A DNA stretch of 64,000 nt, from positions 28,422-92,421 of the IMG/VR virus record IMGVR_UViG_3300030108_003057; one strand, 5' to 3'. The notes under the pieces are model-generated. The model made no database searches. It was not told where the DNA came from and saw only the letters and a list, made by a program, of their open reading frames with translations. The stretch is from a virus. Position 1 is the stretch's first letter. Each line of letters begins with the position of its first letter. A program made the translations under genes and the position numbers. Shown one piece after another: positions 3,851 to 46,095 of the stretch.

Positions 3851-5710
3851 TTATATTTCACAAGCCCCACCTGCACAAGCGATTTCACCGCTTAGGTCTG
3901 TGTTGTCCTTTTGTTCGACTACATTTCTTAAGTCTACCGATTTTAATGACTCCATCATCTCACGAAATTTAAGGACATTCGTGGACTCAAAAGGAGCCTG
4001 TATATATGTTCCACCATCATAAGGTAAAACTGAAAGACCGTTATACGACTTTCTATTATTCCACATCCATTCACCAACATCCTCCCATTCATTTTCACGA
4101 ATAGAAACTGTTGCTGAAACATTATGAGTATTCATACCATCTCGGTGTCCAGTATTAACCCAATTTTCTGCGAACCATTTTACTCTTTCTAATAAAGAAA
4201 TAGCAGGTTCAGTTCTTAGTGTTGCACCATCTGGTGCGCGTTGAGGAATACTAATAACTGCTTCAAGATGTGGCTTGAAGTGGTCATCCTCAATTAATTC
4301 TTTATGGTTTCTAGCCAAATAATCATAAATGGCTTCACTCTTTCCTACTCTAACTCTTCTAATATAGTGTTTATCATGCCATGCGTGAATACCGCTACTT
4401 GTACCTAATACAAGTGAAGTAGTTCCCGCAGGTTTAACACAAGTTAGTCTGGCGGCTTTATTAATTCCTATTTCTTCTGCAACTCTTATATTTACTGCTT
4501 TAACATGTTTTGCCGCCATTTTTACATCTAAACTCTTTAATTTATTAGATGCAATCCCCGTCATTGATACGCCAACTAACGCATCCTTTTCTGTTGTTTG
4601 CTTCCATACATCTCTAAGATAATGGAAATCTGTATACCCTGCTTGTAATGTTCCAACAAATGCTGCCGCTTTAACTCTATTGTTTAGGTCATGTTGACTT
4701 TCTACATTTGAAACATTTACTTCTGTTAGATTACAGAACTGATAAGGTCTTAACGCAATCTCGCAACATGGGTTAGTTCCCCAATCCTTATCATTTGAAA
4801 AGTATAATCCCGGTTCACCCGAACCTGAATCTTGTATTTTTTGCCATAGTTCTTTAAAAAATGCCTTTCTAACTCTACTACGAATTAGAACTGCACTATT
4901 ATTTGCTCGGCCTCTTTGTGGGTTTTGTTCCCACCATGCTCCACTCTTACATGAAATCATATCATCATCATCAGCACTAAATAAACTAATTAATGCTGCT
5001 CTACGAATTCCACCTGCTAATACTGAATCAGCAATGAGACACATAATATCATGTGCTTCAATGGTGGATAATTTACTACCATGTTCCTTTTCAGATAAAA
5101 TGTTCTCTATTTTTACAAGACATTCTCTTAAAGGAGTTGGACCGGGTGCTCGACCACCAGATGTTTTAAGTAATTCACCCTTTGGTCTAATATCTGAATA
5201 ATCAAACACTGGAGTTGTTTTATATCCTCCAAAATATGACTTCATCAATGCTTTAATTGAATCAGCCCAACCTTCTATACTATCACCAATTAAATATCTT
5301 CTAGTTCTTTTAGAAGGTTTTGATATTTCAGGTAATTGTGCTACATGATGTTTTTGTACTGAATAACCGACTCCGGTTCCTCCTAACAATAAAAACATAG
5401 CCTCCCAAAAAGAATCAATACAATCAATCGGCATATATGCACAATTGTAAACTCTATTTGGACTAACTTCAATTGGTTTACCTGCAAATTGCATACTTCG
5501 CATTGAAGGTAATACTTTCTTAGTTAATACAAACTGAGTGTATACATCTTTTATCTCATCTTTCAATTGAGGATATTTTTTCATATGCATTTCACAATTT
5601 CTATTACAAATCTCCTCCCATGTTTCTCTCCTAAACTTATCTGGCTTAAACTTGGCATATTTCATATGCACAATTATATCACTTAATATTTCTTGACTTA
5701 TTTCCATCAT
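3851..5710 (-). CDS. nrdJ: Class II (adenosylcobalamin-dependent) ribonucleotide reductase
   Basis: YNCAY, GGTGVGY, TNPCCEI thiyl-radical motif, CNLTEVN, VKPAGTTS, C-terminal CAGGACEI redox pair. Confidence 0.93.
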   Translation of the reverse strand: MMEISQEILSDIIVHMKYAKFKPDKFRRETWEEICNRNCEMHMKKYPQLKDEIKDVYTQFVLTKKVLPSMRSMQFAGKPIEVSPNRVYNCAYMPIDCIDSFWEAMFLLLGGTGVGYSVQKHHVAQLPEISKPSKRTRRYLIGDSIEGWADSIKALMKSYFGGYKTTPVFDYSDIRPKGELLKTSGGRAPGPTPLRECLVKIENILSEKEHGSKLSTIEAHDIMCLIADSVLAGGIRRAALISLFSADDDDMISCKSGAWWEQNPQRGRANNSAVLIRSRVRKAFFKELWQKIQDSGSGEPGLYFSNDKDWGTNPCCEIALRPYQFCNLTEVNVSNVESQHDLNNRVKAAAFVGTLQAGYTDFHYLRDVWKQTTEKDALVGVSMTGIASNKLKSLDVKMAAKHVKAVNIRVAEEIGINKAARLTCVKPAGTTSLVLGTSSGIHAWHDKHYIRRVRVGKSEAIYDYLARNHKELIEDDHFKPHLEAVISIPQRAPDGATLRTEPAISLLERVKWFAENWVNTGHRDGMNTHNVSATVSIRENEWEDVGEWMWNNRKSYNGLSVLPYDGGTYIQAPFESTNVLKFREMMESLKSVDLRNVVEQKDNTDLSGEIACAGGACEI

Positions 5711-10986: not shown

Positions 10987-11123
10987 TTTTACTACTTTTA
11001 CTACTTTTACTACCCCCTCTCATATAATAATAATAATATAAATTAAGAATCATATACAAAATGATATATATAATCTATCTTATAGATATATAGTATATAG
11101 TAAAAGTAGTAAAAGTAGAAATA
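10987..11123. repeat. Inverted iteron set: 3x TTTTACTAC, AT-rich spacer, then 2-3x GTAGTAAAA (origin-like)
   Basis: Exact 9-mers at 10987, 10996, 11005; reverse-complement copies at 11097 (1 mismatch), 11106 (exact), 11115 (degenerate). Confidence 0.75.
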
Positions 11124-11457
11124 GTTACAATATGTAACTGATATTCCAATTTTCTTGGACATAATGATTTACTACGAATAGTAAATGTGAGAAGGTGTTA
11201 CATAATGCTTGAGAAAATGTGCTTTAGAAAAGTAAGCCTCATTATGTAACCGAAAATAGTAATTAGTTATTCAAAATAACTATAATAATATTGTTAGTTT
11301 GAAAGTTATAGTTTATATAATAACTAGGTCAAACTTACAAATGTAATCTGATTATCATGTGCGAACCAAAATCATGATGATTCACATACAATAGGAGAAC
11401 CCCGAATCAGTATATAAAGCCCTGAAGTCCAAAAAGTCATTATGTATAGGTTATTTC

Positions 11458-11500
11458 AAATACCTTATTTGTAATACCTTATCAATAATACCTTATTAAA
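11458..11500 (+). repeat. Three tandem AATACCTTAT units with 14-bp period
   Basis: aaTACCTTATttgt-aaTACCTTATcaat-aaTACCTTATtaaa, immediately before the first palindrome. Confidence 0.6.
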
Positions 11501-12603
11501 ATACTTACCATATGGTCCTTAACTGTGATTAAGGTAATCCCCAAAATGTAAGGTAGCGGCTAAAGTAAATTTAACTACCCTAAAGGCGTTTTTTTAAATA
11601 AAAACGGTTAAAGTTTACTTTTTTGCAACCATATGGTAATAAATTCTTTTATACCTCGCTGCGGTATTGCGACAAGCCACAAGGGTTCATTAAACCGTCT
11701 TCGCTATTTAAAATTCTACTTTTACCTGATTAAGAGAGAAGATAGATTAATAAAGATAGAATTTATAAATTTTAATAAATCGCAAACCATATGGTCCGGT
11801 TTACGTGATACGGATGTATATGGTTTCTGCTGAGAGCAGATACTACTAAATATACTCCGTATTCGATAAACCAATAGACCGCAGCGTGCTGTCCTCTCTC
11901 CGGGGACCGCATATAAAGTAATTATAATTGCTTTTCCTCTTCAATAGTTTTATTCAATCCAATAAAACAATTTCATCGTTACCATATGGTCCATGCGTTA
12001 GCATACTATGGACCGCGAGGGGGTGAACAGGAATGCTTAGTGTACATTATGATTATGATGATGAAATCATTGAAGATGTTTGTGAATAAGCATTCTACAT
12101 CTGTTACCATATGGAACATTATAATATGTCCTCAAAAATAATGGGGTATCCCTCAAGTCCCAAAAAGTCTGCGCCTCCTAGGAAACACCACTTGCGTTAT
12201 TTTAAAATTTCTCACTATAAAGAATTTATTAGCAGCGAACCATTTCATTATTTTAAAATCGTTTCCTTGAGCCACACACTGTTCAGTTTAGTTATCGGGT
12301 ACCATATGGTTTGAATTTGCATAATTTGTAAAGCAAATGCGTTTTGAATACTTGGAAAAACCAAACCCCAAAAAATAAAAAATAAAAAAACAACAGTTTT
12401 TGATAACGGAGAACTATTAAAAACTCCGGTAATTAAAGCCGTTTCGACTTGTAAATACTAACTTTTTGGAATACAATCGTTTTTATTCCAAAGGATGCAC
12501 CAAAAGCACCTACTTTTGCAGGCACTTTTACCGTCCAATATTTTCTCTAACCATTCTTGATTAATTAGAGGGTCATCCCTTAATTCTTGAATCAAATCTT
12601 TAC

Positions 12604-12813
12604 TCATTCATTCATCTCCTTAAGTCGTTCTTGGATGATTTCTGTAATGCGTTTCATTGATACTACTAATTCCTGTTCAGAACTAGCAGGTATTCTCAAC
12701 GATTCCAGAACCCAATTTTGATAACGGTCCTGTTTGAACTTTACGACATATTCAGCCTTCTTAAAAAATTTAAACATGTCCAACACCCACACAATTATCA
12801 CACTTATAATCAT
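12604..12813 (-). CDS. Hypothetical protein
   Basis: ORF track 69 aa; plausible start MFKFFKK. Confidence 0.45.
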   Translation of the reverse strand: MIISVIIVWVLDMFKFFKKAEYVVKFKQDRYQNWVLESLRIPASSEQELVVSMKRITEIIQERLKEMNE

Positions 12814-12836
12814 AACTTAACTCCATATCACAAATT

Positions 12837-13040
12837 TCACATTTCATCTTTTAACACCCACTGAATCATACCTTTTTTGTGCATCTGTACGCCAATCCCA
12901 ATTAGGATAACGTTCTTGAAGCCAATTAGGGTTTTCTTGAACCATTTCTCGTCTTTCATGTCTGGCACGTAATTGCTTAATTCTGTATCTACGCCATAAT
13001 GGATTAGACCAACTATAATTACCACCAAATCTTCTTTCAT
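12837..13040 (-). CDS. Hypothetical protein (possibly membrane-associated)
   Basis: 67 aa, protein-like composition; preferred over the overlapping 12844..13065 frame. Confidence 0.4.
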   Translation of the reverse strand: MKEDLVVIIVGLIHYGVDTELSNYVPDMKDEKWFKKTLIGFKNVILIGIGVQMHKKGMIQWVLKDEM

Positions 13041-13311
13041 ATCTTTGATTAAAACTACTACTCATCTTTTTCTACTTCCTTAATTACATTGATTTGACTT
13101 TTTTGATGTCGTAGAAAGTCATAACTACGCCTGTTTCTAAATTCACGATTTTTACAGGTTTATTTTGTTCGTACTATGCCCGAACATTGGCGGGTTGGGT
13201 TTTTTTGATGCGGGAAGTTGCCCATTAACTCCCGGCGAATTAGCATAATTATGCTTCTTCGTCTAAACGGAAAGAACTACCTTCCGCCTCATCAATGTAA
13301 TGGACACTCAT

Positions 13312-13914
13312 TTAAGCATCCACTCCATCTTGAGTTTCGACCTTTGTTTCTCCTGAATCAACAGTAAAAGTTAGGTCTGCATTACCGTCCCATGCACCGG
13401 AACGGTGTTTCGACATAAGATTCTGCTTTTCAGCATTCACTTTTGTTGAAATAAAACTATCCCTGTCTTCTATTACTGCATAAGGTGACTCTGTATCTCT
13501 ACCAGATAGTCTCAAAATTGATAGGCGATTAGCACCTTCAATTTCTTGGGCTGAATCGAATACTTGTCCCCAAAAAGTAGTGGCTACTTCTAGGTGGTTA
13601 TCCAATACTGCCTGTACTGCTGGAGCAAGGTTACTACCTTTTCCTCTAGTAAAGGGCCAGTTCCCAATAGGGAAGTTTCTACCGATTCTTTGGATTAATT
13701 GCTTTAGTTCTAGTTCAGCACTATCAGCCATTTGTCCAAGGTAATTACCAATAACCATCATATTAAACTCAGCAACGTTGCGTTGCTTTTTGTCTTCTAT
13801 GCTGGATATTAGAGGGGTAGTTTCCTCTATCCATTCGTTCACTTTATGCTGATAAACAGCATAGTCTTCTGCGTTCATTATTTTTGTGTTTTCTTCTGCA
13901 CTCATTTTTCTCAC
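13312..13914 (-). CDS. Hypothetical protein, paralogue of 14052..14564
   Basis: 200-aa ORF with its own TATA box (13951-13960, minus strand). Confidence 0.75.
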   Translation of the reverse strand: MRKMSAEENTKIMNAEDYAVYQHKVNEWIEETTPLISSIEDKKQRNVAEFNMMVIGNYLGQMADSAELELKQLIQRIGRNFPIGNWPFTRGKGSNLAPAVQAVLDNHLEVATTFWGQVFDSAQEIEGANRLSILRLSGRDTESPYAVIEDRDSFISTKVNAEKQNLMSKHRSGAWDGNADLTFTVDSGETKVETQDGVDA

Positions 13915-13950
13915 TTTCTGCCTGTTAAGGCAATAGTTAGAACAGATTTG

Positions 13951-14030
13951 AGTATATAAGGTACTAGGAGCAAAGCGCCCGTACCATATGGTAGTTAATT
14001 TACGAACACTTTGTAATAGTAATTTAAGTA
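13951..14030. promoter_or_regulatory. Divergent archaeal promoter pair flanking an ACCATATGGT palindrome
   Basis: CTTATATA on minus (13953-13960), TTTAAGTA on plus (14023-14030), palindrome 13983-13992 between them. Confidence 0.55.
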
Positions 14031-14051
14031 CCTCAAAATATGCAATATATC

Positions 14052-14564
14052 ATGACGCAAGACGCTGATAACACCATAACTGAAAAGTGGAACAATTTGG
14101 TAGTTAGAGTAACCGCATGGTTATTACTACCTTTTTGGTCCGAGAACGCCGAGGATAAGAAACATGCCTTTAACATGGGTACAATCCGTAACTATGTAGA
14201 TTGGGGTAATGAGGGAACCGATGAAGATAAGAAATCTTACATGAGTTCTATCAATGCTCTAGCACGTAGATACAAAGATTTGTGTGCTTTACCTTCTTCA
14301 TCCAAACCAAAAGACCCAACAGTAGGTCAAATTTGGGAGGGAATGATGGAGAACCCAAATAGACTATTGGCTCTATTTACTCTAAGAGAAGGTAACATCA
14401 AAACGTACAGTGACGCTTCTAAGATTGGACATAGGAGAATTAAGGCTCTTTTGAAAGATGAAGAAGGTCCGATTGATGTATCAGAATTTATCAATAATTT
14501 TGATGCTTCTTTAGTAGCATATCCAGCAATGAAGGAGGAATCATCAATGGATGAAGAGGCATAA
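14052..14564 (+). CDS. Hypothetical protein, paralogue of 13312..13914
   Basis: ORF 14040..14564; ATG 14052 lies about 22 nt after a TATA-like box (leaderless). Confidence 0.75.
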   Translation: MTQDADNTITEKWNNLVVRVTAWLLLPFWSENAEDKKHAFNMGTIRNYVDWGNEGTDEDKKSYMSSINALARRYKDLCALPSSSKPKDPTVGQIWEGMMENPNRLLALFTLREGNIKTYSDASKIGHRRIKALLKDEEGPIDVSEFINNFDASLVAYPAMKEESSMDEEA

Positions 14565-14573
14565 TCTTCATTC

Positions 14574-14620
14574 GGGGTAGGGGGTAAAACCCCTATCCCA
14601 CCCCTTCGGGGTTCTTTTTT
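14574..14620 (+). terminator. Double hairpin plus T-tract terminator
   Basis: GGGGTAGGGG-GTAAAA-CCCCTATCCC, then ACCCC-TTCG-GGGT followed by TCTTTTTT, directly after the stop codon. Confidence 0.7.
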
Positions 14621-14850
14621 ACTTGTTTAGTATAACACTAAAACTCAGAAAGTTCTATTTTAGACATTACATTTGTTACACCAAACTGCGTATAACAAAA
14701 GAACCATATGGGTCTACTTCTTCCAGAAGTTAAATTATTCTTGCTCGTCAAACACTATAATCACCCCCGATGCGGCTTGCTTCTTCCCACTTCGGAGAAG
14801 CAATCCATATGGTACGAATAATATATAAGATTTAATATTTAATATAAAAG

Positions 14851-14965
14851 GAGTAATATTTGTCTTCGATTAGAATGAGGCAAATATGTACGACTGTTCT
14901 TTCTGTATAAATCTTATAAATTAAGAGTCCCCAGACGCTACGCGCGGCAGCCACGCGAGGACTTT
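14851..14965 (+). ncRNA. Candidate structured small RNA
   Basis: TATATAA at about 14822; stems ATATTTGTCTT/GAGGCAAATAT and AGAGTCC/GGACTTT contain G-U pairs on the plus strand; no ORF. Confidence 0.35.
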
Positions 14966-15181
14966 CGGTAAAACTTTAGTAAATATTCATTCAATAAAAC
15001 ATATTTATTAACATAAATATTTCACTAGGATTTATGTGAATGTAATGGTAAACCATTCCATTTCACTAAACCCACAGTTTTACCACCGTACCATATGGAA
15101 CATCGTGATATGTCCCCGACGGGGTTTCTCAGCATTAAGATAACATTTCTTAAGTCTTATTAATTATATCACTCGTCGTAC

Positions 15182-15282
15182 GGGAAGACGCACTCTGTTG
15201 CCATTGGTACGTCATATAATAATAATTATACTTACTAAAAATGTTCCATTTTTCCCTACTGGCAACAAGTCGCGTCCTTCCC
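15182..15282. ncRNA. Candidate ncRNA with a long bulged terminal stem
   Basis: GGGAAGACGCACTCTGTTGCCA (15182-15203) pairs with TGGCAACAAGTCGCGTCCTTCCC (15260-15282) around an AT-rich loop. Confidence 0.45.
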
Positions 15283-16257
15283 TTCACTCCTCGTTCATCC
15301 TGAAAAAGCCTTAAGAACTTTTAAATAAAAGAGCATCGAACCATATGGTAATAATTTGTATTACCTCAAAAATTAAAAAAAATAAAAAAAAGGCGGGGGA
15401 AAGAACAGGTTTTCACCATTTACATCTTTATTAATTTCCAAAACCCCATATTTTTTAGGTGTGCAGTAAGATTATCGCTGTTACGAGACACTTACAAATT
15501 TAATCGTGATACAGTACGTTTGGTTGCGCTTTGTACTTGACGACTACTTTTACTTATCCATAAAGGGCTTGTACTCCCAATATTTACCATCTGATTCCGC
15601 TAAGAATTGCGCTATTAAATCGCCCACAAACCAACCTTTGATTATTACGTTGTCTTCTCATCGGTGGAGAAACAAATTGCATTTAAGTCACTATAACTAA
15701 ACTCAGTAGATAATGCATTATTACTTCACAGTAATTATTCTGCCATGCACTATATCATTTAAGTCCCTATTGGGACACCCAGCGACTGGCTGATACAGTT
15801 TATAGCACAAAATAGAGTATATAAGGTACTTACCAAAGTGTCGTACCATATGGTGACGAAGGAACCTTAAATTAAGGTATTCACTACGTCAGAACATGCG
15901 GATATTAACTTGACTCTTTTCCAGCGTTGTAAATTAATTACTAACAGCAACAAAAAAGAGCCGGCGTTAATACCGTTTCTGTACCATATGGAGTGCTCAT
16001 TATGAGCAAGAGAAACGTATTTAATTTATTTAAATGAATGTTGAACGTCTCCTCGCGGGCTACTTCATAAAACACATTTTTCATTAACTTCGTACCATAA
16101 ATAATCTATTTTATTCGTACCATATGGTTCCGCTTTGCGTGAACTTGTTTTGTTATTTAAATAACGAAATCAAATAACCTATTTAATATAGTATATTTCA
16201 AATAACCATATCTTTATAGGTAACCCGAAACTTTTCTTTACTTGGAGGGAAATTATA

Positions 16258-29247: not shown

Positions 29248-29529
29248 ATGTCTTGGGAAAATATTGTTAAAAGAAAAAAGATGAAACCTTTGTATAAAAA
29301 ATTAATTGATGATGTAGTAGAAGAATTATATAGCCCTGCATCTGCTCAAGAAATATATTCGCTGATGCGTGATAAATTTGAAAAAGAAATACAATTCTCC
29401 GGTCGTAAAGTTTTAACTGGAAGATATTTCCCAGATATAGGTGCTGTTAGACAGTATCTTAAAGTTAATCACAAATCTACGGGTATGTTTAAACAAAGAA
29501 AATTATACGGTGGTAATCAGAATGACTAG
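29248..29529 (+). CDS. Tagged (MSWENIVK) winged-helix-like protein
   Basis: SPASAQEIYSLM...FPDIGAVRQYLK, similar in pattern to the C-terminal domain of the upstream gene. Confidence 0.65.
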   Translation: MSWENIVKRKKMKPLYKKLIDDVVEELYSPASAQEIYSLMRDKFEKEIQFSGRKVLTGRYFPDIGAVRQYLKVNHKSTGMFKQRKLYGGNQND

Positions 29530-30184
29530 AGTAACCCGTAAAACCTGCCCAGTATGTAATCACGAAGAACGTGATATAATAGAACAAGGAGTTCTTGACG
29601 GAAGTATTGACCCATCAGTATTAGATAAAGATAATGGTTGGTGGAATGGAACTACCCGTAAACATATGCAAAACCACACAGACAATTATGTTTCACATTC
29701 AAACGACAATTGTAAGTTATGTACACATCAGTCAAGGGCTGATATTGAAGCAGGTCTTTCAGATGGCCGCACCAAAGTTAGCGAAATAGCAGAACAATTA
29801 GAAATGTCTGAGGATGCCGTACAATTACATTTAAGAAAGCATCTAAAACCTATGATACAAAAGAGCGCGGCTATGGAATTAGCACGTATTGATTTTAATG
29901 AAATGGACGTGCTTTCTAACAATATTGCTATACTACAAAATAAAGTAAATGGTTTAGCGGATAACGAAAACCTTAACTTTAAGGAAATAGATTCTTTAAC
30001 TAGATTAGCAAAGGAAATAAGGGAATCCCTTAAATATATGTTAGAATTTAAAGGACAATTAGTACACAAGAGAGAAGAAACTATTGTGGTCCAGCAGGTT
30101 GAGGTTATTCAAAGAGTATTAATTGAAAAATACCCCGAAGTATGGACAGACATAAGAGATGCAGTTGCGGAGAAATTACAATGA
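29522..30184 (+). CDS. Putative terminase small subunit (two CxxCxH + HTH repeats, coiled-coil C-terminus)
   Basis: CPVCNH...HMQNH and CKLCTH...VSEIAEQLEMSEDAVQLHLRKH; start MTRVTRK at 29522. Confidence 0.55.
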   Translation: MTRVTRKTCPVCNHEERDIIEQGVLDGSIDPSVLDKDNGWWNGTTRKHMQNHTDNYVSHSNDNCKLCTHQSRADIEAGLSDGRTKVSEIAEQLEMSEDAVQLHLRKHLKPMIQKSAAMELARIDFNEMDVLSNNIAILQNKVNGLADNENLNFKEIDSLTRLAKEIRESLKYMLEFKGQLVHKREETIVVQQVEVIQRVLIEKYPEVWTDIRDAVAEKLQ

Positions 30185-43637: not shown

Positions 43638-44009
43638 GTGGACTGGAAACTTATTCTAAAAAGAAGATTAAGTAATTCTGAGTTCATGAAAGTTATAACT
43701 ATACTAGGTAAAGAATTACAAGAAGCGGGCTTAATGTTAGAACACGCAGGGGTACAAACTTCTGAATTTAGCACAGGGCGAGATGCAATAACATTTCCTA
43801 GAAACTTTAAAGTTAGTGTTGAAGGAATTAGTGCTACCTTTGCTTTAGATTTTGAATTACCAAATATGTCTGTTAATATTAGACATATTAAAGGAGATAA
43901 AGATTTAACTGATTTAGTTCAAGAATACCTATCGACTGAGCAAGATTTAATTAATAGAATGATAAGAGCCATTTCACCAGATGCATCAGGAGATATTGCT
44001 TATGGGTAA
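43638..44009 (+). CDS. Tagged (MDWKLILK) hypothetical protein
   Basis: GTG start after GGTGG RBS within ORF 43596..44009. Confidence 0.65.
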   Translation: MDWKLILKRRLSNSEFMKVITILGKELQEAGLMLEHAGVQTSEFSTGRDAITFPRNFKVSVEGISATFALDFELPNMSVNIRHIKGDKDLTDLVQEYLSTEQDLINRMIRAISPDASGDIAYG

Positions 44010-46095
44010 TATGAAATATATGCCAAAATATAACCACTGTCGAGTATTATATTTAACCGCTAAAGAAGACCCAAAATCTTACGGTGGTGAATGGGCTAAT
44101 CTAATTAATGAGTTAGTAGATACTATGGAAGAAGACTCTAATTTAAAATCTTATATGGAATTAAGAATATCTCCTATCAGAATGCAACAAGCAAAAAATG
44201 TTACTACTAGTCATGCTAAGTTAGTATTAGATGTACTAAGAGATATTGCTCAGTCTGCACCCGTACTTAAAGAAGACCAAACTAAACTAAATACATTTAT
44301 TATGCCAAATAAACCAATGTACAGAATTTTCGATATTGAAGATTTAAAAGAACTACGTGGGTTTACTGGTGAGTGGATAGTTCAAGAAAAGTTTGATGGT
44401 CTACGCATTCAAATTCACAAACTTAAAACTGTTAAAATATTTTCATTTAATGGTAGAGATATTACAGATAAGTTTCCAAAACAAGTAAAACGGTTAGAAC
44501 AAGATGCTTTTCCAAAATGTATTTTAGATGCAGAAGCAGTATTATATAAAGAAAACGAGCCACTTCATAGAGCAGATACTATTGCTTATATTAATAAAAA
44601 AGATAGTGAGGGGGACATCAAAATACATGTATTTGATATTCTTAGACATCAAGGAGAGGACTTATATTCTAAAAAACTAGAAGAAAGAATTATGGCTCTA
44701 TTTAGAGAATACAGCGCTTTAAGTGATGATGAAATACAATTTCCTTCTAAAAGAGATACACGTTCAGCAGATTCATTAGAAGAAATAGAATCATATGCAA
44801 AAGAAATAATGCAAAATCCCACATCGGAGGGAGTAGTAATTAAAGATGCTAAATCTTCCTATATTATAGGAAAGAAAAAGAATCCTAAATGGATTAAATG
44901 GAAAAAATTTATAGATTTAGATTTAATAGTATTAGAATCTAGAGAAAATAAAAATGGTACTTTTAGTTATACTTTAGGTGCTGGGCCTGTTGATGACGAC
45001 GATGAGTATAAACCATTAGTAGAACATGCTGATAAAAAATACCTAAGTGTTGGTAAAGCACTTAATACTAAAGAAAAAGTAGAAGTAGGTAAAATTATTA
45101 GAGTAAAGGTAGATGAAGTACAAGCAAATAAAAAAGGATTTTCTATCTATTCTGCAAAGTTTGTAGAGATACCCGAAGTTGACGAAGCAGAAAAAATAAT
45201 AACATTAAAGTTTTTATCAGAAGATAATAAGAAAAGATTATCAGATTATACAATAGAAGCACTAACTAAATCATATAAAATTACAGACAATATTCACGGT
45301 GATGCGATTATAAAAGGTGAATTATCTATGGAGGGATTTGTATTTCATGGATTTGAAAATAATAACCTAATGGCTAAAAATGCTTTAGTAGATTTAGATT
45401 TATGGAAAGAAGCATTAGGTGAAAAATATCACAAAGATAGTTCTATTTTAATGACTCTTGTTAGTAATATGACTCAAGAATTTAGCAAGGTAACTGTTAA
45501 AGATATTATAGAAAGAGCAGAAAATCTTAATAATATTTTAACTAGATTATTTAAAAGTAAAGGTGAAGAGTTAGAAAAAGAAGTAACTAATTTTATTAGA
45601 GAAAGAGGTATGGCTTACGGTATTTTATATGATAAGTCATCCAAATTATTTAGTAATGATGATAAGGTTGAACTAAAAGCAGAACCTACAAAATTTGAAT
45701 TATGGCGTAGAGAAGATGATAATTTAAATCTTATTATAATACACAAAGGAAAGGAATATATTTGGAGAATAGAACAAAATGAAAAAGTAGACTTATATAA
45801 TTTATTTGGTAAGTCAGATAAGTTTTTGGCACAAATAGATGACGATGCAGATAAGGTTAAATTAATATCAGAGGGCGGTGCAATAATTGGTAGTCAAAGA
45901 GATGGTTACCACGAATATATATTAGATTCTAAGATGTATGATGGTAAAATACATTTTAGAGTCGTACCCATTAAAGACGAAAGAAAGTGGATAGCCTTTA
46001 CTGGTTTTAAAACCAAACCGACACCTAAATCAAGTGATGAAGGGCTACTAAATATCTATGACGATAAGTATAAAAAACTTAAGTTTTCTAATTAA
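43981..46095 (+). CDS. lig: ATP-dependent DNA ligase with a C-terminal extension
   Basis: Motif I QEKFDGLR, III ILDAEAV, IIIa HVFDIL, IV SEGVVIK, V WIKWKK; true start probably about 44002-44020. Confidence 0.9.
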   Translation: MHQEILLMGNMKYMPKYNHCRVLYLTAKEDPKSYGGEWANLINELVDTMEEDSNLKSYMELRISPIRMQQAKNVTTSHAKLVLDVLRDIAQSAPVLKEDQTKLNTFIMPNKPMYRIFDIEDLKELRGFTGEWIVQEKFDGLRIQIHKLKTVKIFSFNGRDITDKFPKQVKRLEQDAFPKCILDAEAVLYKENEPLHRADTIAYINKKDSEGDIKIHVFDILRHQGEDLYSKKLEERIMALFREYSALSDDEIQFPSKRDTRSADSLEEIESYAKEIMQNPTSEGVVIKDAKSSYIIGKKKNPKWIKWKKFIDLDLIVLESRENKNGTFSYTLGAGPVDDDDEYKPLVEHADKKYLSVGKALNTKEKVEVGKIIRVKVDEVQANKKGFSIYSAKFVEIPEVDEAEKIITLKFLSEDNKKRLSDYTIEALTKSYKITDNIHGDAIIKGELSMEGFVFHGFENNNLMAKNALVDLDLWKEALGEKYHKDSSILMTLVSNMTQEFSKVTVKDIIERAENLNNILTRLFKSKGEELEKEVTNFIRERGMAYGILYDKSSKLFSNDDKVELKAEPTKFELWRREDDNLNLIIIHKGKEYIWRIEQNEKVDLYNLFGKSDKFLAQIDDDADKVKLISEGGAIIGSQRDGYHEYILDSKMYDGKIHFRVVPIKDERKWIAFTGFKTKPTPKSSDEGLLNIYDDKYKKLKFSN

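Follow-up and report, generated by a model that had tools for sequence, protein, structure and literature searches.

Three described systems come close to the locus analysed here. T4-type PeSL (promoter-early stem-loop) cassettes (PMC2839356, PMC4122927) combine a short stem-loop with a promoter where small accessory genes of a hyperplastic region adjoin, and insertion, deletion and replacement breakpoints between close relatives fall at the element. Halovirus HF2 and the haloferacalesviruses carry intergenic repeats with BRE/TATA promoters that start transcription at a fixed distance, some of them in both directions; these are directional blocks of 58 and 29 bp, present in low number in each genome, which keep their position and orientation among relatives and were tested experimentally (PMC8707807). 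In integron attC arrays and in shufflons, unrelated units are separated by a structured repeat, at which units are gained, lost and reordered.

In a 64-kb stretch of viral DNA (the window) and five relatives, a conserved short element recurs at small accessory gene boundaries in a hypervariable region, and gains and losses of units fall exactly at its palindromic core, much as at PeSLs, as do inversions here. The PeSL promoters are of the sigma-70 early type, whereas those predicted here are archaeal TATA/Inr promoters with leaderless starts, and where PeSLs share a homologous ~50-bp block, the only sequence shared here is an exact palindrome of 10 bp, flanked by stems that vary and co-vary. 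Unlike PeSLs, the element is symmetric, which permits bidirectional promoters and inversions, and there is one array per genome. We found no sequence homology with T4-type PeSLs; by this comparison the element appears to work like a PeSL and not to be a member by descent. The HF2 repeats are likewise virus-specific, conserved intergenic repeats of tailed archaeal viruses, and the predicted promoter geometry would fit. Our element differs from them in having a palindrome upstream of a TATA box, with a hairpin, and in occurring as 8-23 copies in one shuffled block, where units and elements are inverted or relocated between relatives and neither position nor orientation is conserved. Compared with integrons and shufflons, the searches turned up neither integrase nor invertase, the symmetric core has no direction, the units carry their own promoters, and the repeat measures 10 bp against 57-141 bp in attC. 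On balance, and with moderate confidence, we read the palindromes as the invariant centre of a composite element that joins the palindrome to a stem-loop and to a promoter or terminator, and that bounds the units of a hypervariable array of accessory genes.

The virus and its relatives

From its gene content we assign the window to a marine, magrovirus-like tailed archaeal virus. Magroviruses (viruses of Marine Group II / Poseidoniales) have a halovirus-like MCP, an ATP-dependent ligase in the structural module, PolB (split in group B) and genomes of ~90-100 kb (PMC5434244), and these traits were matched. The MCP matched haloarchaeal and methanogen tailed viruses only, PolB was found in four of five related IMG/VR records (G001-G005; split in G002 and G004), and homologues came from Tara and other marine sources. 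The Pfam models for PCNA and RadA gave no match; their detection in magroviruses requires profile-profile searches (PMC5434244).

Each of the five records holds its cores in one 3-6 kb cluster (9, 8, 8, 23 and 16 cores, with one more elsewhere in the fourth), compared to 0-1 matches for a reversed-pattern control. The complete 96,094-bp genome G002 is related to the window (TerL 61%, MCP 53%) and has its array at the syntenic position that matches the window's, the point from which the two arms of the genome diverge. The composite pattern CAAAG-N-ACCATATGGT-N-CTTTG was recovered from more than 120 IMG/VR stretches, many of them on 92-97 kb contigs. A search of 596 Gb of prokaryote genomes gave 27 matches, about chance level; a 14.8-kb contig that holds 5 sites accounts for one of them and probably comes from a virus. 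The IMG/VR loci were chosen for at least one two-sided element, so some of the fractions reported below are inflated.

The core palindrome

Around the cores we observed a recurring anatomy, a fixed geometry, conservation among relatives and breaks in homology. The first-pass annotation had counted 14 cores in 4.6 kb and noticed none elsewhere by eye, with fewer than one expected in the whole window. An exact count bore this out: all 14 copies of CCATATGG lie at 11508-16127 (Table 1), with none in the remainder of the window, a chance expectation of 0.74 and a maximum of 3 among 100 shuffles. The spacings listed earlier agree with the exact positions; distances of 100-800 nt predominate, and each genome has a single cluster. 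Outside the array the inner CATATG shows no avoidance (24 copies, against ~19 expected for the whole window). A search of the array region of the window for one-mismatch copies found none; within arrays generally such copies stay at background level, and two-sided elements have 322 exact cores compared to 2 with one mismatch. Taken over 200 flanks, the window and its relatives give a symmetric consensus with A at -1 in 84% and A/T at -2, extending the dyad symmetry to 2 nt on either side of the 8-mer. The proposed longer form, (C)GTA-CCATATGG-T/A, which had been attributed to many sites, is present at about half of those in the window. The annotation had named a high motif frequency in coding regions or poor conservation as evidence against its reading; neither was observed, as the motif is missing from coding regions and the relatives conserve it.

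Table 1. Features of the array and of the ligase gene in the window.
Feature	Position	Strand	Remarks
Core 1, array left edge	11508-11515	.	exact match; unit U1 (11508-11636) follows
Core 2	11629-11636	.	both flanks fold into hairpins from the core's GG or CC
Core 3	11787-11794	.	exact match
Core 4, hairpin and micro-ORF	11982-12089	+	core 11982-11989; hairpin 11988-12014 (GGTCCAT...ATGGACC), -13.1 kcal/mol
GAGGGGGTGA in core 4 unit	12017-12026	+	
Acidic micro-ORF, 18 aa	12033-12089	+	
Core 5 and hairpin	12107-12131	.	hairpin 12113-12131 (GGAACAT...ATGTCC); unit collinear with L004:2391
Core 6 and A-runs	12302-12396	.	core 12302-12309; A-runs 12356-12396
Three small ORFs (49, 69, 73 aa) inside array	12458-13065	-	
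200-aa gene, array cargo, no assigned family	13312-13914	-	homologues in marine metagenomes only
Divergent promoter module (predicted)	13953-14032	.	conserved in L003 and L004
TATATAAG, putative TATA box for 200-aa gene	13953-13960	-	
Left hairpin of module	13960-13985		CAAAG loop
Core 7	13984-13991	.	
Right hairpin of module	13990-14032		ACTTTGT 14008-14014 in loop
TATA-like AATTTAAG	14021-14028		31 nt before ATG 14052; equal distance in L004
174-aa gene	14040-14564	+	51-53% identity in L003, L004
Core 8	14704-14711	.	right side: unrelated units in window, L003, L004 (three of three differ)
Core 9	14805-14812	.	GTA extension on right side; 30-nt inverted match to 16098-16127
Core 10 and hairpin	15091-15115	.	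hairpin 15097-15115
Core 11, hairpin and A-runs	15341-15402	.	core 15341-15348; hairpin 15347-15365 (GGTAATA-ATTTG-TATTACC)
TATATAAG, predicted promoter	15818-15825	-	
Hairpin (CTTTG loop) and core 12	15825-15853	.	hairpin 15825-15847; core 15846-15853
Core 13	15984-15991	.	
Core 14 and hairpin, array right edge	16120-16145	.	hairpin 16126-16145 (CTTTG loop)
First right-arm gene, 118 aa	16258-16614		GGAGGG precedes
ATP-dependent ligase	43981-46095		between portal and protease/MCP genes

Stem-loops and predicted promoters

A stem-loop opens exactly at the core's GG, carries YTTTG in its loop and has variable, co-varying arms; its closing CC abuts a TATA box or an A/T run. Perfect stems of at least 5 bp start at the first G in 325 of 1328 flanks, compared to 7-44 at other offsets, a peak of roughly 10-fold; 300 of the 325 have TTTG in the loop, on 40 different arm sequences. 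The distance from core to CTTTG varies by 4-10 nt. The three CCTCAAAA strings that had been noticed near 12130, 14031 and 15364 are real, each being the closing CC of a hairpin that opens with the core's GG; an A-rich run comes next. A G-U wobble test of the stems gave no information. The co-varying stem suggests a single-stranded or cruciform state, which a plain operator model does not need.

For outward ORFs of at least 60 aa, start positions peak sharply at 45-59 nt beyond the end of the core (173 of 549 starts), placing a dyad-symmetric site at a defined position, with the stem-loop immediately upstream of the predicted promoter. When these ORFs were aligned at the ATG, positions -25 to -22 were 77-88% A/T, -32 to -28 were C-rich and -1 was a pyrimidine in 88%. 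Shine-Dalgarno-like strings preceded 22% of the 45-59-nt ORFs compared to 70% of those starting 85-125 nt away. The order core, stem-loop, TATA and ATG matches, by sequence, the geometry of an archaeal leaderless promoter. A bacterial sigma-70 type promoter was considered and rejected, the TTTG-to-TATA distance of 12-13 nt misfitting -35/-10 spacing and the layout being of archaeal TATA/Inr type. The predicted promoter role is based on geometry and statistics drawn mostly from relatives; within the window the full promoter form occurs at 13984, 15846 and 16120 only, and most other units are 100-250 nt long with no clear TATA box or ORF. The earlier suggestion of operators for early promoters is thus strongly supported in relatives as to the promoter link, by the fixed geometry, while the dimeric regulator on the core and the early timing would be additional assumptions.

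The stems could also act in RNA form, with the CC closing an upstream hairpin, the GG opening a downstream one and AUAU as hinge, as a twin-hairpin processing or stabilising signal that cuts multi-unit transcripts into hairpin-capped units. Stems that start exactly at the GG and co-vary would be expected of such a signal, as would tandem micro-ORF units (L022 7554-7842) that lie downstream of one promoter and have no obvious TATA box of their own yet carry a hairpin and GGAGG, and outward flanks in which a hairpin is followed by a T-run (L022 7554, left flank). We nevertheless consider it quite unlikely, given 63 predicted divergent promoter sites across loci that need no crossing transcript, conservation that is symmetric on DNA and includes A/T at +/-1, promoter-type hairpins that lie upstream of the predicted start site, and both unit orientations within one array.

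Contents of the array

The description of the region as gene-poor is roughly right: the 4.6 kb hold the 200-aa and 174-aa genes, three small ORFs and many 100-500-nt units without long ORFs. Iteron-like repeats and an AT-rich inverted repeat adjoin the array at 10987-11497, and the left flank of core 1 carries three to four tandem 14-nt ATAAGGTATT repeats. No ORF of at least 15 aa starts near the core in unit 11787-11989. The core 4 unit recurs at L022:7554, L024:7613 and L026:6975, and its stems compensate among these homologues and the window (TCCAT/ATGGA, TTCAT/ATGAA, TCAT/ATGA). The core 6 segment is 84% conserved in L004 and shares a repeat with 15366-15402; its A-runs, T-runs on the minus strand, are likely the terminator of the minus-strand small-gene operon 13065-12458. 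Homologues of the 69-aa ORF lie inside the arrays of L003, L004, L022, L024 and L026, and the ORF probably starts at an internal ATG, giving 57 aa. AlphaFold2 predicts a beta-beta-alpha fold for its product, and a ribbon-helix-helix assignment was rejected on this account.

The 174-aa gene likely starts at ATG 14052 on a leaderless mRNA, since L004 keeps the MT.D start and the TATA spacing. The 13-mer GTATATAAGGTAC has exact copies only at 13952 and 15817. The first 50 nt of the core 11 element are conserved in L026, L006, L063 and L073, and its A-runs (15366-15402) read as T-runs on the minus strand. Between these T-runs and the predicted promoter at 15818-15825, a ~390-nt non-coding minus-strand transcript is probable at 15400-15795, its strand and both ends being deduced from these signals; the segment has stops in all frames, no protein-level conservation and no excess folding (z = 0.31). 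RNA-library contigs fall on two window units, covering 13286-13436 and 13516-13768 over the 200-aa gene and matching 15462-15773 at 100% identity. In L022 and L024, homologues of the 118-aa gene likewise border the array on this edge.

As another possibility, the array might be a replication-origin, partition or packaging (pac) platform that binds many copies of one protein, such as a small-terminase-like HTH protein. The single cluster per genome, the adjoining iteron-like and inverted repeats, and a conserved protein of ~220 aa (window 29510-30181), in which two CxxC...HxxxH helix-turn-helix modules accompany a long coiled coil, would be in keeping with such a platform. This protein, one of several candidate core binders, had no significant fold match, the weak ones including small terminases, and may equally be the core reader or a small terminase. 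Each gene boundary has about one core, set at a constant distance from where genes start, and genomes differ freely in how many cores they hold (8 to 23) and in how these are spaced; we regard such a platform as very improbable. Nothing was found in favour of the packaging or nucleoprotein-organising sites that the first-pass annotation had listed, and the per-gene promoter geometry argues against packaging sites because it is not expected there.

Rearrangement of units at the cores

The comparison among relatives that had been proposed for whole-unit gain or loss revealed both, together with inversion and relocation, and homology breaks exactly at the cores. U1 matches L004:2814-2936 over its full length (83%, plus/plus, z=28), and it is inverted because the adjacent gene block matches on the minus strand. 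The start of U2 lies across the gene block in L004, beside the counterpart of core 14704 (z=8.6), and has thus been relocated. L022 and L024 are otherwise collinear, yet three units (A, B and C) differ between them by inversion or relocation, and B is 98% identical. Near-identical strains have an extra ~107-bp unit at core 15091, seen in contigs of two different studies (X5 record 16, X7 record 24) in which 15084/15088-15098 is present twice, 92-96 additional letters apart. Many Logan contigs terminate at a core.

These rearrangements raise the alternative that the cores are dedicated site-specific recombination sites, integron- or shufflon-like, cut by a recombinase or nuclease of virus or host that has escaped recognition, perhaps in the hairpin or cruciform state; units would be excised, inserted in either orientation and inverted, and promoters would travel with the cassettes. 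Breakpoints exactly at cores, involving unit and block inversion, relocation and single-unit insertions and deletions, are what such sites would leave. The core should stay invariant if it is restored at every event, its symmetry would abolish directionality and units do occur in both orientations, the hairpins abut the core as in attC sites and IS200/IS605 ends, and the contig ends at cores fit as well. We searched G001-G005, including the complete G002, for tyrosine recombinase (PF00589), serine recombinase (PF00239), Y1 transposase (PF01797) and TnpB (PF07282) and found no member of these families in the five relatives. The tight core-to-gene-start geometry is not required of recombination sites, and micro-homology acting over evolutionary time could produce the rearrangements. 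We judge dedicated sites unlikely, and it is rather improbable that the palindrome and hairpins are the substrate of a recombinase-family-independent, integron-like cassette exchange system, in which promoter-bearing gene or RNA cassettes are excised, inserted and inverted at the symmetric 10-bp site. Recombination sites delimiting small cassettes, an option in the first-pass annotation, hold up as far as delimitation and rearrangement exactly at cores go, but not as to a known recombinase.

A proposed composite boundary element

Under the reading that we prefer, a composite boundary element, the core ACCATATGGT would be joined on one or both sides by a stem-loop starting at its GG. Past the closing CC there would follow either a TATA box firing outward, with the start ~25 nt on, in many cases on the first letter of the ATG, or an A/T run serving as terminator for a converging unit, and the element would thereby give promoter and insulator functions to single-gene units. 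A dimeric protein of high specificity, encoded by virus or host, may recognise the core in its double-stranded form and act from ~50-60 nt upstream of the start. Four observations sit uneasily with this boundary element: operators seldom stay almost unchanged, as this 8-10 bp site does, through hundreds of copies; the variable core-CTTTG spacing is hard to square with a single rigid protein that touches the two; the co-varying stem hints at a single-stranded or cruciform state; and few cores in the window have the full promoter form.

The core could also be the joint where units are exchanged, deleted, inserted and flipped, because it is the only sequence common to all units, and flipping would be possible because the core is its own inverted repeat. 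The units would be early or accessory genes. Whatever the means of exchange, related archaeal viruses have gained, lost, moved and flipped such units exactly at the palindrome.

Palindrome clustering and its setting

The first-pass annotation had described 14 palindromes crowded into one gene-poor region, and an exact count over the whole window bore this out: all 14 exact copies of CCATATGG (the core) lie at 11508-16127. Counting the motif over all 64,000 nt gave no core outside that interval, against 0.74 expected and a maximum of 3 in 100 shuffles. One-mismatch copies were absent from the array region, the array being the core-bounded block of small accessory genes. The inner hexamer CATATG was not depleted across the rest of the window, which places the signal in the 8-10-mer itself; restriction avoidance or an NdeI-like target was rejected on the same ground. 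Base preferences mirrored each other on the two sides of the site: among 200 flanks of the window and its relatives, 84% had A at -1, and -2 was A or T. These symmetric preferences define the element as ACCATATGGT, plus weak preferences two bases further out.

The array is located at a GC-skew sign change, with minus-strand genes on its left and plus-strand genes on its right. The array region gave no match to the phage collection (blastn), nothing in an Rfam search and no tRNA. On the left of the array, the two arms of an inverted repeat of 24 nt (TTACTACTTTTACTACTTTTACTA with its complement; 96% complementarity) flank an 85-nt, very AT-rich spacer, and 14-nt ATAAGGTATT repeats, three to four in tandem, adjoin the first palindrome. 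Together, the inverted repeat and the tandem repeats look like a replication origin with iterons. That the array itself would be an origin or a packaging site we regard as highly improbable.

Conservation in related viruses

Conservation of the cores in relatives, on which the earlier reading depended, was also found: L004, a relative whose 200-aa gene has 77% amino-acid identity, contains nine cores in 3.3 kb. A three-core pattern search identified six more irregular arrays in IMG/VR, and the triple-motif matches at L005, L008, L010, L011, L013 and L015-L020 were rejected as coding tandem repeats unrelated to the element. Scans of five related whole records revealed one core cluster per genome in all five, with 9 cores (3.5 kb of 93.8 kb), 8 (3.4 kb of G002), 8, 23 (and a single one outside the cluster) and 16; scanning these records with the reversed pattern as a control gave 0-1 matches. 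The complete record G002 (96,094 bp) and the window have in common TerL (61%), MCP (53%) and about 30 other proteins, and in both the array is found where the structural arm meets the nucleotide-metabolism arm.

The composite element CAAAG-N4-9-ACCATATGGT-N3-8-CTTTG was recovered from more than 120 IMG/VR stretches among the matches listed, many of them on 92-97 kb contigs with several sites each. The same pattern produced 27 matches in 596 Gb of prokaryote genomes, approximately the number estimated by chance, and none of the 27 was from an archaeal genome. The cellular-genome scan gives no support to a borrowed host regulatory site, but few Poseidoniales genomes may carry any. Among these matches, five composite elements were observed within 2 kb on the contig L168 (NZ_NZTP01000027.1, 14,756 bp), which is filed in an 'Altibacter sp.' MAG and is probably a magrovirus-like sequence binned by mistake with a bacterial genome.

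The fetched loci (about 1 Mb) held 600 cores, compared to about 12 expected from composition. At two-sided elements, which have CAAAG/CTTTG on both flanks, 322 cores were exact and only 2 had one mismatch; this invariance is unusual for an operator. Protein-seeded locus searches returned nothing in IMG/VR or GTDB genomes, and IMG/VR had no match to the combination of TATA box and core that is typical of the lineage to which the window belongs.

Identity of the virus

Of the viruses of uncultured ocean archaea, magroviruses rank with the most abundant. The structural module of the window comprises genes for TerL, a portal protein, an S78 prohead protease, MCP and a tail-tube protein, with an ATP-dependent DNA ligase gene sitting among them. 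The MCP had matches only in haloarchaeal (HCTV/HVTV) and methanogen tailed viruses, and homologues were retrieved from marine metagenomes, Tara among them, where they lie on contigs about 92 kb long. PolB is encoded in four of the five related records; it is intact in G001 and G003 and split in two others (see the table), a split that is specific to magrovirus group B (PMC5434244). Features of this kind have been published as the hallmarks of magroviruses, which are viruses of Marine Group II archaea (PMC5434244). PCNA and RadA gave no match with Pfam models; magrovirus replication proteins of this type are detectable by profile-profile methods only (PMC5434244).

Stem-loop and predicted promoter geometry

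Of 1328 flanks, 325 had a perfect, non-extendable stem of at least 5 bp opening at the first G of the GG in the core; stems at neighbouring offsets numbered 7-44. TTTG lay in the loop of 300 of the 325 stems, and the arms had 40 different sequences; so many arm sequences on one stem position indicate that the stem is kept as structure and not as sequence. The closing CC was followed directly by a TATA-like box (TTATATAC, TCATATAT or TTAAATAC) or else by an A/T run.

For ORFs of at least 60 aa that point outward (away from the core), the distance between core and start peaked sharply at 45-59 nt, and a broad hump followed at 90-110 nt. When aligned at the ATG, the peak group (n=181) was 77-88% A/T at -25 to -22, with a pyrimidine at -1 in 88%, a C-rich stretch at -32 to -28 that is the closing arm, and TTTG at about -42 to -39. 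Shine-Dalgarno-like strings occurred in 22% of the peak group versus 70% of the distal group. The geometry is the layout of archaeal TATA/Inr promoters giving leaderless, or leadered Shine-Dalgarno-bearing, mRNAs. Peak-type genes lay on both sides of 63 interior sites, on one side of 255 and on neither side of 235 (n=553).

Transcription starting at the core, such that all RNAs begin ACCAUAUGG, was rejected, as A/T was not enriched at a set distance on the inward side and the outward geometry was sharp. A few ORFs fit a leaderless start on the core's own ATG (11633, 11986, 12111 and, on the minus strand, 15849). This possibility was also rejected: the fitting ORFs cross unit boundaries, and U1, the first segment between neighbouring cores, stops after 6 codons in both genomes. 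In the G001/G003 lineage, several units have the conserved string ATTATG(T/C)GGTAAT after the TATA box and ahead of the ATG (flanks at 5458, 6457 and 8241 of locus L022); it was not seen in the window.

The spacing from core to CTTTG varies by 4-10 nt, which is difficult to explain by a single rigid protein, and the selected hairpin speaks for a single-stranded or cruciform state. Together with the invariance of the core, these two observations keep two rival explanations alive. One, that the cores are an RNA twin-hairpin processing signal, we consider quite unlikely; the other concerns recombination and is taken up with the rearrangements.

Units and genes of the window

Three cores of the window have a full putative promoter module (see the table). 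The TATA-to-ATG distance at core 13984 is 31 nt, the same as in L004. The 13-mer GTATATAAGGTAC, TATA box and outer hairpin arm in one, has only two exact copies. The divergent genes around core 13984 belong to no Pfam/PHROG family and were found in marine metagenomes only.

Every frame of the stretch of about 390 nt between the predicted core-15846 promoter and T-runs is interrupted by stops, and a 312-nt RNA-library (metatranscriptome) contig covers the stretch at 100% identity. We found neither excess folding (z = 0.31) nor coding conservation in this probable transcript. An 80-nt piece of it is 78% conserved in two loci, L032 and L063. Near-identical A-run blocks, AAAAAATAAAAAATAAAAAAA, which are T-runs on the minus strand, adjoin cores and are conserved in L004 and L022; they probably serve as oligo-T terminators of the archaeal type.

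Five units, each 121-195 nt long, make up the left sub-array (11508-12309). Three further genomes contain the unit at 11982, with compensatory changes in the stem. Tiny acidic ORFs of 7-18 aa (e.g. MLSVHYDYDDEIIEDVCE) after a conserved hairpin and a strong GGAGG-type string were seen here and at L022:7554-7842, and such units occur one to three in tandem in several genomes.

Features of the window and split PolB genes of related records
Feature	Position	Strand	Remark
Inverted repeat with spacer	10987-11121		
Tandem 14-nt repeats	11446-11497		
Unit	11982		hairpin, then GAGGGGGTGA, then micro-ORF
Acidic micro-ORF	12033-12089	+	18 aa
A-run block	12356-12396		
A-run block	15366-15402		
Divergent gene	13312-13914	-	
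Divergent gene	14040-14564	+	
13-mer copies	13952; 15817		
Promoter module	core 13984	divergent	predicted to drive 200-aa and 174-aa genes
Promoter module	core 15846	- (predicted)	
Promoter module	core 16120		ahead of first right-arm gene
Probable transcript	15400-15795	- (predicted)	
Conserved 80-nt piece	about 15607-15686		
HTH coiled-coil protein	29510-30181	+	
Split PolB	G002:C1:11982-13631		two ORFs
Split PolB	G004:C1:61681-62725		two ORFs

Rearrangement at the cores

Between the window and L004 the gene block is reversed while U1 is forward, at 83% over its full length, with homology stopping at both cores; U1 was thus inverted in place. The start of U2, the next unit, lies on the opposite side of the gene block in L004 compared to the window, and one unit common to loci L003 and L004 occupies different positions. 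The flanks of L022 and L024 are collinear, but units A, B (98% identical) and C have changed both orientation and order. Gain or loss of whole inter-palindrome units among relatives, which the first-pass annotation had put forward as a check, was seen in near-identical strains (contigs from two different studies) as an extra 107-bp unit flanked by the core at 15091.

The cores could be dedicated site-specific recombination sites. Searches of the five related records turned up no tyrosine or serine recombinase, no Y1 transposase and no TnpB, and we consider this explanation unlikely. We favour, with modest confidence, a composite boundary element in which palindrome, stem-loop and promoter or terminator would meet at a unit boundary and supply each small unit with its own transcription signals. 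A dimeric protein of high specificity would recognise the core in double-stranded form, probably about 50-60 nt upstream of the start site. Being self-complementary and the one sequence that the units share, the core may also be the point at which they are exchanged and inverted.

One protein conserved across the lineage (more than 160 clusters, 92-96 kb marine viral contigs) is about 220 aa long and combines two CxxC...HxxxH helix-turn-helix modules with a long coiled coil. It could be the reader or regulator, or equally a small terminase subunit; a fold search with it gave no significant match. A wHTH candidate is encoded at 1473-2123 on the minus strand. The 90-aa gene adjoining the array, whose sequence may be MazG/DUF1599-like, was rejected by inspection as a DNA binder, and the conserved 57-aa array protein was rejected as a ribbon-helix-helix protein.

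Relation to known systems and significance

The predicted element is nearest in function to the promoter-early stem-loops (PeSLs) of T4-type phages (PMC2839356, PMC4122927) and the intergenic-repeat promoters of halovirus HF2 (PMC8707807), and is homologous to neither. The geometry measured for the HF2 promoters (PMC8707807) agrees with that predicted for the magrovirus element. In contrast to both systems, its conserved part is an exact 10-bp palindrome with a structure-only hairpin, its predicted promoters can be bidirectional, and its units invert. The founding magrovirus paper nowhere mentions repeats, palindromes, promoters or intergenic regions (PMC5434244), and a palindromic motif is apparently undiscussed in the magrovirus papers that the literature search found.

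The element offers a sequence-level handle on magrovirus gene regulation, predicting promoters, start sites and unit boundaries across hundreds of metagenomic genomes, and at 30 bp it is a simple diagnostic signature of the lineage. It is also a concrete bait in the search for the protein that reads the core. It flags a hypervariable block in which accessory genes, presumably serving host takeover, are exchanged, a probable archaeal-virus counterpart to PeSL-style promoter-mediated modular shuffling in which the self-complementary core would additionally permit inversion.
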